This document shows, one piece after another, positions 1 through 38,887 of a stretch of DNA of 64,000 nt (position 1 is its first letter; the number at the start of each line of letters is the position of its first letter). The stretch is from contig NC_086108.1 of the NCBI RefSeq assembly GCF_963921235.1, positions 55,864,001-55,928,000 of the forward strand, given 5' to 3'. Under the pieces are notes generated by a model. That model was not told the origin of the DNA and ran no database searches. It saw nothing but the letters and a program-made list of their open reading frames with translations. Origin of the DNA: Mobula hypostoma (taxonomy: Eukaryota). Made by a program: the position numbers and the translations under genes.

Positions 1-1860
1 CATGGACCCTTCAGAAAAGTTGCTCACCACCCAAAGATTTGGTCTAATTTGATGTTAATTCTGAGAAAATACCTGGATCATATGTTAGGATAATGAAAGA
101 ATCCTAGGATTGTATAGATGAAAGGAAGCAGTAAACTTTCTTTGGATCAAACATGCAAAAAAAAACACAAAAATGATACATCCCCATAATGTCAGTTAGC
201 ATTTTTTAAACTCATTCACACCACATCCTTTGGGAATTAGGATCTGTTTATTGGGAAATGTAAGGGATTTTTCTGCTGGAAATGTTCTGGGAGTTATGTC
301 ATGTCATTTTCCAGGTTGTCAAAGCAGATGCATGTGCCAAGCTCAGACCTTTGTAGAAAGACACGAGTTTCATTAGGAATTGTGATTTCTTGTGTAACTT
401 AGCAGCTTGGATTCCAGTCTTTTTAGTTCAAAGAAAGCTCTTAATCCCTTTAGAACATTTTCTTTTTGGTTTCTGCATTAGTGATATATGCTGGAAAATT
501 GTTAGTTAATGTTTATTACCAGCAGTGTTAATAAGTTCAAATAAATTGTGGGCTAATTTTGATTTAATTAACAAATGAATTATATGACATCACCAGGATC
601 AAGTAAAAATTATCTTTTCTTTTTTTCTCTTTTTACTTTTCAAAATGGAAACTTTTGATTAGGAAGAGGTTTCAGCTCTATTTTCATAATTTCACTTCTT
701 AAAAACTGGTATTTTGGCGCACACATATTGCCTGATCCATGATAGGCCAAAATTTTTCAAACACACATTACCAATGTTAGGTATGATCACCCACAATTAT
801 AAATTGTCTTTTCAAACGGTAATATTTCACTGGATAATTGGGTAGTTGGAGGGCGTTGGAAGAGCATGGCGATGCCTTCCTCCTTTGCTTATACTCTGAA
901 ACCATGGCACCACTTTTCATTGTTCCTATTCATGATCTTAACAGTCATAGAAAAACATTGTCTATGTGCAGGTACTTCTAACCAACAATTTTAGAACAAA
1001 CTCTGGCAACATGAGTTTGTATTAGGAGACCTTGGTGAGCATTTAGATTTTTTACATGTATCATGTAGAACTAAGAGACTGTTCACTTGAATGCTTTTAT
1101 CCTTTAATTTATTTAGGTGTCTTGCCATTCTTCATCAGCTTGGGCATCTTTTGTATAGCATTGCAACCATATTCTTAGAACACATCCATTTTCTATTTAG
1201 AGCTCTGTATTTATACCATGTACATACTGTATAATGTTTGCTGTAAATTATTAATTTATACAGGTACATTAACATTGCCTTTAAAGTGGTGGTGTTGCTG
1301 TGTAGAAAATTTCAGGTGAAAATTCCCTTTTTACCTTTTTTTTAATAATGGTGTAATATAGAATAACCTGAACAGTGGTGATAAAGAGACATATGGAACC
1401 CAGAGGTCACAGATATTAAAGTTTTTCAGTTATCTGAAGTAATCCACCATAGATTCCAGTTTAAAACTATTCAATGTGCAACTATGAAGCAATGTCTGGG
1501 ATAACTGTTAAAAAGATAAAGCAACAAAACACAAAAAAAAAATTGCAGTCTGATGTCAGTACCTTTTAAAATACGTTTTAAGCTTTTGGTCCAAATTGTG
1601 TTAAAAAACAGTTCAACAGATTGAAACGTCTGCATGAGTAATGGGTTTATATGTCTGTTAAACATTGCAATGTTTCAGGTGGTGATTTCCTTAATGTTTT
1701 CTGAGTCTCACACAATGTATGGTACAGTATTGTATATTGTGTTCAGAAACCTTTTAAGAGATTTTTATATGAAGTGATTAAACAAAAGCATGGATATATT
1801 TTATGTTCCTTCAATTTTATTGCATTTTGGAAGTTATTAAATAGCACGATTGGTGCTTTT
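1..1860 (+). other. Possible 3' UTR / terminal region of an upstream host gene (TE-free, AT-rich)
   Basis: No recognisable repeat, U-rich tracts, TGTACATA (Pumilio-type element) at 1219-1226, several AATAAA/ATTAAA hexamers. No coding exon visible; inference only. Confidence 0.3.
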
Positions 1861-4465
1861 AAACTCAGTGAGTATAATACTCTGCATTTTAATTATTTTT
1901 CTCGTCATGTCCTCTTTTTATCCTGGTCACCCAGCATGCTTCACTCATTGTAATCTCTCCAGTTGCTATTCTTTATTGTCCACTCTAATTGCTCTCCAGA
2001 AGTTTGGCCTCCTTGAACCACTGCAGTCCTTGTACTGAGGCTACTGCTGTGAAGCAGCTTAACAGGGAACGGAAGAATTTTGCTGCAGCAGAACTGAAAG
2101 ATCCAGTGTATTTCCAGTTCAGAATAGCGTGCTGGTTGCATTGAGATGCTGTTCCCGTATACTGCCTTTAGCCTTCCGTCACAATAGATTTCATTCTTTG
2201 TTTCTCAGTGAGTTTCTGCATTTTATTATTGTTGCACATTGGAGTCATGGACTACTGAAAATGAAGGGAGAAAGTGTTTAAGGCAGGGGTTTGAATACCT
2301 GAATAAGGTTAAGATGTTGAAGTACTAATGGGACTGGCACGTAAAGAGTTTCCCATAGTATGGTTTGTGCATTGTAAATGGTGGAACGGCAATGGCAAAT
2401 GGAAAGTTAAGCCTGTTTTTGCAGAGTATCAAGTTTCTCCTTAGTGATGACCCCAGGCTGTTGAGGGAGTTAAATCTGAAGGTAGTACCTTTAAATGGTA
2501 GGTGATTTGTGGATGTATTATAGGAAATGTCCATTGGCCATGTCCATGTCCGAATGTTATTTGATAGCTTTCATTGCAAATTAGGCCATGCTGTGTGAGG
2601 GCACAGCATGTCCCCTTACCTGTTGAACTACAGGTGAAACAGATCAGCCAACAGTAAACTCAAATGTTGTCCTTTGTGCAAACTGAATTCTACCCATTTC
2701 CCAAATACTTCAGTTCTGCCAGGACGTCTCAGCTAAATGCTGTCTTGAAGTCAAGTCTCATTTCTGAAGTTTGGTGTCATCGGTCTTCTTCCTCCTGCCA
2801 CCACGTATATCTGTGACTTTCCAAACAAGGATTGTTGGCAAAGTTTGCCACTGGACTTTCATAGCTGATGTTCATATGGAGAGTATTACTGAATGCTAGT
2901 CAGCAATGGGAAGACTGGTTGATTTTCTTTATTTGTTCTGTGGTTATCAATAGAATTCGTATGTTGCCTTGTTAAACTGGGTAAGCAAAGACAGATTGTA
3001 AAAAGTAGTTTTAGTCTGTGATGCTTAGTTTTACGTGACTGATTTACCAACTTGAATGCTCAGGAATTCTTCTCAACTTCTGGAAAGCACTAACCATTTG
3101 TAACTCTGGTTATGTTTCTGGAGGTCACAAATAGGCAATGTGCTCAAACACAATAAGGAGTCATATAGAGTTGTACGACATAATATCAGGCTCTTCTGCC
3201 CATTGTGTAATGCTGACTATCATGCTTATCTATATTAATCTTATTTGCCTGCACTAATTCCATAGCTTTTCACATGCCTTGCACACACAAGTACTTGTCC
3301 AGATGTTGTTACTGTTTCAAAGTTCAAAGTAAATGCATGAACAAAGCACATATATGTCACTATATACAACCCTGAAATTCACTTTCTTGTGGGCATACTC
3401 AATAAATCCATTATAGAATAATAGCCATAATATAATCACCGAAAGACCGCACCAATATGGGCATTCAACCAGTGTGCAGAATACAATAAACAATGCAAAT
3501 ACAAAAAGAAACAAATAAATATCAAGAACATGAGATGATGAGTCCTTGAAAGTAAGTCCATAGGTTGTGGGAATATTTCAATGATGGGACACATGAAGTT
3601 GAGTGAAATGAACCCTTTGACACAACAGCCTGATTATTGAGGGGTATTAACTCTTTCTGAAACTGGTGATGTAAGCTCCTGTACCTTCATCCTGATGGCA
3701 GTGGTGAGGAGAAAGCATAACCTGATTGGTGGGAGTCCCTGATGACGGATGCTGCTTCCCTGCAACAAGGTTTTATGTAGATGTGCTCAATAGTGGGGAG
3801 GGCTTTACTCATGATGGACTGGGCTGTATCCTCTACTTTTTGCAGGGTTTTCAATTCAAGGCCATTGGTGTTTCCAGACCAGGCCGTGATGCAACCAGTC
3901 ATTACACTCTCTACTACACATCTGTAGAAGTTTCCCAAGGTTTTATATGTAGTGCTGAATCTCTGCAAACTCCTAAGGAAGTAGAGGCGTTCCCATGCTT
4001 TCTTTGTAATTGCACTCATGTGCTGGATCCAGGACAGATCCTCCAAAATAATAACACCAAGGAGTTTAGACTCTCTCTACCTCTGATTTTCCAGTGAGGG
4101 TTGGCTCAGGAACCTCTGGTTTCCTTCTCCTGAAGTCAATAATCAGCTCCTTAGTCGTGCTGACTTTGAGTAGGAGGATGACATCGTGGCACTCAGCCAG
4201 ATTTTCAGTCTCCTTCCTACATGCTGATACATTACCACCTTTGATTTGGTGTCACCAGCAAATTTGAATTTGGCATCAGAGCTATGCTTAGGTATACAGT
4301 CATAAGTGGAAAGTGAATAGAGCAAGGGCTAAGCACACAGCTTTGTTGTGCACCTGTGCTGTTGGAGATCATGGAGGAAATCTTGTTGCCAATCCAAACT
4401 GACTGGATCTGCGAGTGAGGAAATCGAGGATCCAATTGCACAAGGAGTATTGAGGCCAAGGTCTT

Positions 4466-4880
4466 TCTCCTCTCCTTCTTACCCCATCCCTTGTTTATTT
4501 TTATTCCCCCCCTTTCTTTTTTTTCTCTCTCTGTCCCTCTCATAATCACTCCTTGCCTGCTCTCCATCTTCCTCTGGGCTCCCCTCTCCCTTTCCTTCTC
4601 CCTGGGCCTCCTGTCCCATGATCCTCCCCCTTCTCCAACTCTGCATCCCTTTTGCCAATCAACTTTCCAGCTTTTAGCTTCATCCCTCCCCCTTCTGTCT
4701 TCTCCTATCATTTCGGATTTCCCCCTCCCCCTCCCCCTCCCACTTTCAGATCTCTTACTATCTCTTCTTTCAGTTAGTCCTGACGAAGGGTCTCAGCCTG
4801 AAATGTCGACTGTACTTCTTCCTATAGATGCTGCCTGGCCTGCTGTGTTCCATCAGTATTTTGTTTGTGTGTTGCTTGAA
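4466..4880 (+). mobile_element. Penelope-like element 3' (pLTR) fragment inserted in the Rex1 RT
   Basis: Pyrimidine-rich tract followed by AGTCCTGACGAAGGG...GAAATGTCGACT and GATGCTGCCTGGCCTGCTG tail, as at the end of the RT/GIY-YIG copy at 61220-62764. Rex1 sequence resumes at TTGAAGC. Confidence 0.85.
4776..4811 (+). ncRNA. Minimal type I hammerhead ribozyme motif (Penelope-associated)
   Basis: AGTC-CTGACGA-A-GGG TCTCAG CCT-GAAA-TG-TC-GACT: stem I AGTC/GACT, core CUGANGA and GAAA, GUC triplet. Confidence 0.7.
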
Positions 4881-38318: not shown

Positions 38319-38887
38319 GTTGTTGTTCGTCCATCATTGACGCCGATGAGGACCTCGACACCATTATGATGGTGTCGAGACTAGCGCGTGATGTGGATTT
38401 AAGTGAGGGAGAGTTGCGCAGCATCGGTCTCACTCTCTCTTCCCAATTCCCATCTGGATCCAGTGGCAAGACAGAATCTAGACGACTGGAGATGGGACTA
38501 GGTGCAGTGGATGACCAGGACGTCTTCTGTGTCTTGTCCTGCTCTACATGTTCCACGACGCTTGCAGAGACCGCCTTCTTGACCGTTGGACCTTCCGCTG
38601 GTCTCGTCCGCTCAATCCGCCGGAGTCTGTCTTCACATGCTGGGATAGACAACTCCCTATCTCACCGAGGGTTTGAGACCCGTCGGCTACCCTCACCTGG
38701 TTTAGCCGGCTTGTCGAAGCCGTTGCCTGGGATGTGGCCGCTGTCGCATGCAAACAGCTACGGGGAGCCACAGGTGAGAGCTGAGTGCCAGGTGGGGACC
38801 AAAGGTGGACTAACCGCCCTGAAAAGGACGCAACATGATCCCCCACCAGAGGTGCTACCCCTCCCTGACACCCCATGTACCCCTATA
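38319..38887 (-). mobile_element. RTE-type non-autonomous retroelement (569 bp) with 11-bp TSD and (AAC)n tail
   Basis: TACAGCTATAT at 38308-18 and 38888-98; minus-strand 3' end GATGGACGAACAACAAC; CpG-rich, so probably young. Confidence 0.85.
38692..38874 (-). ncRNA. HDV-like self-cleaving ribozyme fold
   Basis: P1 GGGGUGU (38874-68)/ACAUCCC (38735-29); P2 CUCACCUG/CAGGUGAG; P3 GGC/GCC with UCC after it; then AGG-CAA; P4 CGGCUU-CGAC-AAGCCG; G-CUAA with putative catalytic C at 38705. Confidence 0.7.

Follow-up and report, generated by a model that had tools for sequence, protein, structure and literature searches.

HDV-like ribozymes are known at the 5′ ends of RTE retrotransposons (Ruminski et al. 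2011, as cited in PMC3774820, PMC5786205, and PMC6765202), where cleavage is stated to occur at the 5′ junction of the element (PMC3774820). Such ribozyme heads, bipartite RTE derivatives, and ribozyme-headed SIDEs have all been described (PMC6765202, PMC5786205, PMC7245038, PMC4844689, PMC3414825, and PMC3774820). The natural insertions known in HDV-like ribozymes are located in J1/2 and in P4 (PMC4908430 and PMC3774820). R2 ribozymes often have mispaired bases at the distal end of P1 (PMC3774820). The drz-Agam-2 ribozyme is sped by a layout that combines a long P2 with a P1.2 helix and short linkers (Webb et al. 2016, PMC4908430).

The window analyzed here is a 64,000-nt stretch of Mobula hypostoma contig NC_086108.1. 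It contains, on the minus strand, what is quite probably a single, decayed copy of an RTE derivative that is 565 nt long and arose by internal deletion; its first ~195 nt form a predicted HDV-like ribozyme, with a likely hairpin in L3, that would cut before position 38883. The skate RTE ribozyme that Ruminski and colleagues reportedly included in their 2011 work could belong to this same family. The element and its surroundings comprise the following parts.

38319..38883, minus strand: bipartite non-autonomous RTE copy, 565 nt, delimited by genome copies and the partner locus L192
38888..38898, minus strand: 5′ copy of the 11-bp TSD, identical to 38318-38308
38884..38887, minus strand: 4 nt separating the TSD from the element, likely non-templated, not conserved among copies
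38368..38883, minus strand: part derived from an RTE 5′ UTR, 94.9% identical to L192 over query positions 55-523
38319..38366, minus strand: part derived from an RTE 3′ UTR, with a CAA tail, 79-87% identical to the 3′ ends of 7 loci of the RTE family X
38354..38379, minus strand: junction hairpin pairing the last bases of the 5′ UTR piece with the first of the 3′ UTR piece, with the deletion breakpoint in its loop

The original prediction had placed 13 nt between the TSD and position 38874. The 11-bp TSD is indeed present, and nine of the 13 nt belong to the element while the other four do not; comparable extra bases separate TSD and element in 17 of 34 TSD-bearing copies. The element was inserted into a different abundant repeat, which carries RT-like frames on the opposite strand. 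No tRNA head, B box, or Rfam match is found in the element, which contains one A-box-like word at element position 194. Judging from its sequence, it does not qualify as a SINE, a class transcribed by Pol III in which the A and B boxes lie in a head of tRNA, 5S, or 7SL type. The element was proposed to be promoter-less, but it may have an internal Pol II promoter.

A search of the same genome with this element returned 3,351 first-look candidates, and the top 39 other matches are full length at 95-97% identity. Copies carry CAA tails and, in 34 of 45 cases, a TSD of 7-13 bp; 5′ truncations are seen in 18 of the 57 copies of sets B and C, which were not chosen by full-length likeness. The A at 38728, earlier suspected to be CpG decay, is indeed decayed: 26 of 30 copies have G there, and 29 of 30 have C at 38732. 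With these majority letters, the family has a P1.1 of 2 bp and a P1′ made up of Watson-Crick pairs throughout. With its 5-bp P1 (two mismatches, at the distal end) and 1-bp P1.1, the window copy itself is probably weak or dead as a ribozyme. The junction loop is interrupted by similar sequence in three copies (L112, L122, and L129), possibly by another short element inserting there.

The element had been predicted to be of the RTE type and non-autonomous, and its partner supports this. The partner, family X, was located with a pattern for an RTE C-terminal motif, and its 3′ end matches the element in 7 of 30 loci. In L192, the 5′ UTR is joined to broken endonuclease and RT frames (an RVT_1 match and a sub-threshold Exo_endo_phos match) and to the same 3′ end. 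Another 30 X loci were compared: 29 contain the UTR, and the ones extending to the 5′ end share the ribozyme and the start; the autonomous loci L205-L232 contain the full 5′ UTR. Compared with L192 and L205-L232, the element thus has the 5′ UTR and 3′ end of an autonomous RTE with the ORF deleted. Because L192 and the X loci carry the same head and 3′ end, it is an internal-deletion derivative that inherited its ribozyme from the autonomous RTE. Domain matches and likeness to the RTE-1_PSi UTR assign the partner to the RTE clade with an APE endonuclease and RT; the published alignments of RTE-1_PSi and RTE-3_AMi (supplement of PMC5786205) resemble the UTR part and the 3′ end of the element. 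The notion of a separate SINE-like family was overstated, in that the autonomous RTE carries the same ribozyme and ribozyme-headed deletion elements had already been described (Kojima 2018; Eickbush 2012).

Other routes to the partner were less productive. A DUF6451 search led to other RTE families with different 3′ ends, which were set aside, and 3′-anchored and exclusion-pattern searches returned non-autonomous copies only. An intact RTE-like reading frame of 1,000 codons, belonging to a different family, is found in L081 (positions 1757-4759), with no HDV core in the stretch of that locus that was read. A sister RTE family of the same genome, family Y (L184-L191), shares the UTR only from query position ~239 and has variable GC-rich heads upstream. 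No HDV core is found upstream in the 6 family Y loci viewed, so this head is not needed for an RTE to spread.

Two older families of the Mobula genome, Z1 and Z2, came to light through letter differences seen in contigs from other organisms. An 18-mer for Z1/Z2 has 965 exact matches, and 34 (Z1) and 12 (Z2) loci were used; identity to the family's own majority is 87.6% in Z1, 92.2% in Z2, and 96.5% in family N, that of the window copy. Z1 and Z2 (L344-L373, L341, and L366) have the same ribozyme head on different RTE-type tails, so that three non-autonomous families in this genome share one head and differ in their tails. The same ribozyme is also carried by L233 and L258; both belong to a set of RTE loci on metagenome contigs, made up of the best 80 out of 464.

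All the HDV-fold segments named in the original prediction are found on the minus strand where it had placed them, with the pairing role of one of them, the 5′ strand of P1, revised as described below. The fold consists of the following segments.

38877..38883, minus strand: P1 5′ strand (corrected), with predicted cleavage 5′ of 38883, placed by the family 5′ boundary, covariation with P1′ in L233 and L258, and energies
38783..38873, minus strand: structured J1/2 domain with P1.2, whose 5′ arm (38873-38864) pairs with 38792-38783, from the MFE fold and pair counts
38771..38781, minus strand: P2 5′ strand, 11 bp
38767..38769, minus strand: P3 5′ strand
38739..38766, minus strand: L3, 28 nt, a canonical 8-nt start followed by an insert, with the U/G signature as in PMC3386971
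38740..38758, minus strand: hairpin at the 3′ end of L3, 5-6 bp with a 7-9 nt loop, arms 38758-38754 and 38744-38740
38727..38738, minus strand: P3′ (38738-38736), P1′ (38735-38729), and P1.1 (38728-38727, with 38728 decayed from G to A)
38707..38722, minus strand: P4 hairpin
38700..38706, minus strand: J4/2 with the catalytic-position C38705
38689..38699, minus strand: P2 3′ strand, from pair counts

Pairing was counted with a structure-guided script (MAFFT misplaces gaps in the hairpin and at the 5′ end of L258) in five lineages that are related to each other, namely the majorities of N, Z1, and Z2 and the single contigs L233 and L258. In the terminal register, P1 is paired in 35 of 35 cells with 2 double changes, although in L258 the base counted first in P1 may belong to the flank. 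P1.2 is paired in 33 of 35 cells, with 2 double changes in its first 7 bp, and covaries in Z1 and L258. P2 (55 of 55 cells after a 1-nt bulge in L233 is taken out) has 1 double change, and P4 (24 of 25) has 6. P3 (15 of 15) and P1.1 (10 of 10) are fully paired and, like the catalytic-position C, invariant. The covariation proposed as a check of P1-P4 and the L3 hairpin is therefore present in P1, P2, and P4, and in P1.2 as well, whereas P3 does not vary and the L3 hairpin shows one-sided changes only.

A descriptor scan of both strands of the window finds this locus as its single match when L3 is allowed 10-40 nt and finds nothing at 7-9 nt; a descriptor limited in L3 length does miss it, as had been expected. 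Dinucleotide shuffles of the 260-nt segment match the descriptor in 0 of 500 cases. A GC-rich UTR that resembled the HDV fold by chance would agree with the weak pseudoknot-free fold (z score of -1.73, with 10 of 200 shuffles equally stable) and with the lack of an Rfam match, whether in the window, in the region, or in 6 loci. Two of these loci, L274 and L237, are RTE ribozymes with a canonical 7-nt L3, so L3 is not what makes Rfam miss this locus. Chance is nevertheless extremely improbable: the shuffles and the covariation already largely refute it, and a relaxed descriptor recovers canonical HDV folds from 7 of 75 related RTE UTRs and from none of their shuffles, one per UTR. An HDV-like fold is present at this locus and is not a product of chance.

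The fold has P1-P4 and P1.1 in nested double-pseudoknot order. L3 starts with U38766 and G38761 at the spacing of HDV U20 and G25, with CC for P1.1; these U20/G25 equivalents, the catalytic C, and the A that follows it in J4/2 are invariant in all five lineages. The layout of J4/2 is the same in the canonical RTE ribozymes L237, L247, L262, L267, and L279. L3 departs from the usual 7-8 nt, the best fold giving 26-28 nt. We know of no source that treats L3 length as a strict criterion for HDV-like ribozymes. With every tested defining feature except L3 length in place, the locus can be classified as a predicted ribozyme.

At the 5′ end of the family there are two near-identical G-rich 7-mers, 9 nt apart, each able to pair with P1′. 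The original prediction chose the inner one (38874-38868) as P1 and placed cleavage before 38874. The conserved partner of P1′ is the terminal one, 38883-38877. The 5′ region is reached by 104 copies, of which 63 start at 38883 and 12 at 38882 (75 together), 22 at 38881-38875, 1 at 38874, and 6 further in; set A of these was picked by full-length likeness, and the same pattern is seen in the other four sets. No sequence 5′ of 38883 is conserved among copies, apart from a T bias at position -1. The exact 20-mer from 38874 has 1,928 matches genome-wide, and the exact upstream 9-mer is also present in 970 of them; cleavage at 38874 would lose those 9 nt from the template. In L233, P1′ is altered together with the terminal 7-mer, and the second repeat no longer fits it; the originally proposed register accordingly pairs in 30 of 35 cells and fails in L233. 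The second repeat is instead the base of the covarying J1/2 helix, the 5′ arm of P1.2 including the strand first taken for P1. In each of 8 sequences, the terminal register comes out 8-15 kcal/mol more stable by the summed nearest-neighbor energies of P1 and J1/2, which exclude pseudoknot terms.

Cleavage could still take place before 38874 if each insertion regained the upstream 9 nt through re-copying, or if uncleaved RNA preserved them. In N, Z1, and Z2, the second repeat can give a P1 of 7 perfect pairs, and taken alone it makes the stronger P1 in the window copy and in a subfamily with a mismatched P1. This reading is very unlikely, given the single copy that starts there, its impossibility in L233, and the cost of the P1.2 helix; the upstream 9-mer, moreover, is not an exact repeat, so that re-copying would not make it. 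The predicted cleavage site is likely the shared first base of the copies, 38883, nine bases upstream of 38874: judging from the copy 5′ ends, the first base of P1 stands at the element's 5′ end for 38883 and not for 38874. Copy 5′ ends unrelated to 38874 had been named in advance as evidence against the ribozyme; they are indeed unrelated to it, but they move the site to 38883 and leave the ribozyme in place. The correction matters for assays, since a construct starting at 38874 would be the wrong RNA.

The mismatched subfamily (L002-L030), which includes the window copy, has an A at P1 position 6 (38878), giving an A-C mismatch with an unchanged P1′. It accounts for 15 of the first 100 matches listed and has spread with its 5′ end complete, which shows that P1 need not be perfect. 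Some autonomous copies differ in the second repeat instead of P1 position 6. A T directly 5′ of the first G (window position 38884) is found in 32 of 45 copies, in 11 of 17 where the TSD abuts and in 12 of 17 after extra bases; it might perhaps reflect a non-templated A on the cDNA.

The enlarged L3 of about 28 nt with its own hairpin, part of the original prediction, is supported but not proven. A 26-28 nt L3 with a 5-bp hairpin is likely kept in all five lineages: the hairpin has pairs in all 25 cells, with an invariant 5′ arm and a loop that varies in letters and in length, from 7 to 9 nt. The grading follows from the changes seen, which are two one-sided ones to G-U and no double change. 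In the HDV loop, a bulged, least conserved base lies two bases after the G25 equivalent (PMC3386971). The insert is located at this position, suggesting that the hairpin would be sterically plausible. A hairpin similar to the L3 insert, with a possible double change, is found in L236 (positions 350-440), perhaps a decayed or rearranged ribozyme; it was left out of the counts for want of a fitting P1 or P2.

The same sequence might be an active ribozyme with a canonical 8-nt L3, in which 38758-38756 would serve as P3′ and a 20-nt insert would separate P3′ from P1′, or the two folds might alternate as a switch. This triplet, the first three bases of the hairpin 5′ arm, stands where the hairpin-less L237 has P3′, straight after a 7-nt L3, and it is invariant in the five lineages along with the whole arm; the absence of double changes in the hairpin also fits. 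Such a fold is unlikely: P3′ and P1′ are contiguous in every canonical match, and it is less stable (-1.2 kcal/mol, against -4.9 kcal/mol with the hairpin; 3-4.5 kcal/mol weaker across sequences). It gives no reason for the complete complementarity of the 3′ arm next to a loop of changing length, and it leaves the invariance of the downstream triplet unexplained.

Similarly doubtful is the view of the fold as a relic, with the ribozyme inactivated by the L3 insert and the sharp 5′ end produced by an internal promoter or another nuclease. The spread of the mismatched-P1 subfamily and of family Y, which has no core, could be read in this way, and the trypanosome 77-nt head is both promoter and ribozyme (PMC3383444). 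However, double compensatory changes in P1, P1.2, P2, and P4 fall within the hairpin-bearing lineages, the core bases are invariant, and the 5′ end agrees with P1 to the base. A G at -1 is the mark of a capped start, and it is rare here (3 of 45 copies). A predicted family ribozyme with a likely L3 hairpin remains the preferred reading.

Besides the seven canonical folds (L237, L247, L262, L267, L274, L279, and L281), the relaxed descriptor found the hairpin form in 2 of the 75 related RTE UTRs, with 1 long-L3 match in the shuffles; L233 was counted as the hairpin form by a special rule for its P2 bulge. Four of the six long-L3 rows were spurious and were dropped (two from L252, an alternative parse of L274, and one from L279). 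Canonical folds were also seen by eye in L239, L285, and L286. Five canonical RTE ribozymes share with the window locus an 11-bp P2 and a bulged pyrimidine beside P3. Searches of viral contigs gave no pattern match and no RTE relative. Prokaryote contigs yielded one pattern match, L343, which has no P1′, P2, or P4 and was taken as chance.

Z2 has autonomous members with an endonuclease of a distant lineage. In a tree of 27 endonuclease domains, hairpin heads are found on three separate lineages (X with L233, Z2, and L258), each standing beside elements with a canonical L3. Grouping the hairpin-head lineages together was rejected (AU P = 1.5e-7) in a test with 16 rows and a quick tree, run after the first tree had been seen. 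The heads of N and Z2 are 81% identical over 385 nt while the endonucleases are 50% identical, which fits head swapping better than repeated loss. The presence of the same head on three RTE protein lineages is thus likely due to head swapping.

The junction hairpin of the window copy has 11 bp, and its arms are ~2.9 kb apart in L192 (positions 1472 and 4386). Corresponding arms are found in L187 (892 and 4428) and also in L233, L236, L244, and L247. With both arms fixed by homology, 15 of 41 elements tried were usable, and in 6 of these 15, 8-10 of the 10 positions are paired, by letters that differ between elements; the mean is reached in 4 of 20,000 permutations, after the register had been moved by one base before the final run (329 of 20,000 in the earlier register). 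A one-sided test is weakly positive (8 of 22 versus 13 of 442), and in an unanchored test the cross 95th percentile is exceeded by 0 of 37 elements. A covarying 5′ UTR-3′ UTR helix, holding the deletion breakpoint, is accordingly only a lead, given the null unanchored test, the weak one-sided one, the corrected register, and the relatedness of the elements. It would offer an answer to why RTEs make bipartite derivatives, a question left open in Kojima 2018, and would bear on the design of RTE templates for gene insertion (PMC13708176).

The most likely sequence of events starts with transcription of the copy by read-through from outside. P1.2 would fold first and P1 would then dock, P1.2 and the 11-bp P2 perhaps speeding the folding as in drz-Agam-2. 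The L3 hairpin would project from the bulged 3′ end of L3, leaving the U/G pair and P1.1 undisturbed, and C38705 might act as the general acid. Cleavage before the first G (38883) would give an uncapped RNA that starts at the first base of the element. An RTE protein acting in trans could then bind the 3′ end and insert the RNA by target-primed reverse transcription. A bolder proposal, which we hold tentatively and with less than even confidence, combines an active HDV-like subtype with an L3 hairpin, swappable as a head among at least three RTE protein lineages, with RTE RNAs looped through the 5′ UTR-3′ UTR helix so as to form the end recognized by the RT. If it is true, a non-autonomous element that works arises once the looped-out ORF is deleted, and this would be why RTE makes bipartite elements.

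If tolerated, a hairpin in L3 beside the active site would be a third point of expansion in HDV-like ribozymes and a site for grafting aptamers, and searches with a fixed L3 length would undercount such ribozymes (here the 2 hairpin forms versus the 7 canonical ones). No natural L3 hairpin was found in the published work searched, including the available text of PMC10879173, PMC9901934, PMC6326823, PMC11331408, and PMC13708176; Ruminski 2011, Webb 2009, and their supplements lie outside this coverage and may show one.

In the available descriptions, the RTE-head ribozymes and drz-Agam-2 share with this locus the five-helix nested double pseudoknot, the U/G signature of L3, the catalytic-position C in J4/2, a structured J1/2 (P1.2), a long P2, and cleavage at the first base of the element, which is predicted here. 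They differ in having an L3 of 7-8 nt, in contrast to 26-28 nt with a 5-bp hairpin, and the locus has a near-duplicate of the P1 strand buried in P1.2. The bipartite RTE elements RTESINE, WALLSI3, and RTE-N1/N2_Lch (Kojima 2018, PMC5786205; Kojima 2020, PMC7245038) likewise consist of a 5′ UTR and the last ~50 nt, with no ORF and no small-RNA head, whereas the element described here keeps a full ribozyme head that three families share. R2 SIDEs (Eickbush and Eickbush 2012, PMC3414825) and NARTc/RIME also combine the ribozyme head with the 3′ end of a partner, and in hybrid R2 SIDEs the head has moved onto the tail of another element, as it appears to have done here. Unlike R2 SIDEs, this family belongs to the RTE clade, has dispersed rather than rDNA-specific insertions with TSDs of 7-13 bp, and carries an insert in L3. 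Bodies of plant RTE LINEs exchange their 5′ UTRs as well (Hartig et al. 2022, bioRxiv 10.1101/2022.11.04.512097), but the module exchanged there is read as a promoter, whereas here it is a predicted ribozyme-bearing head.
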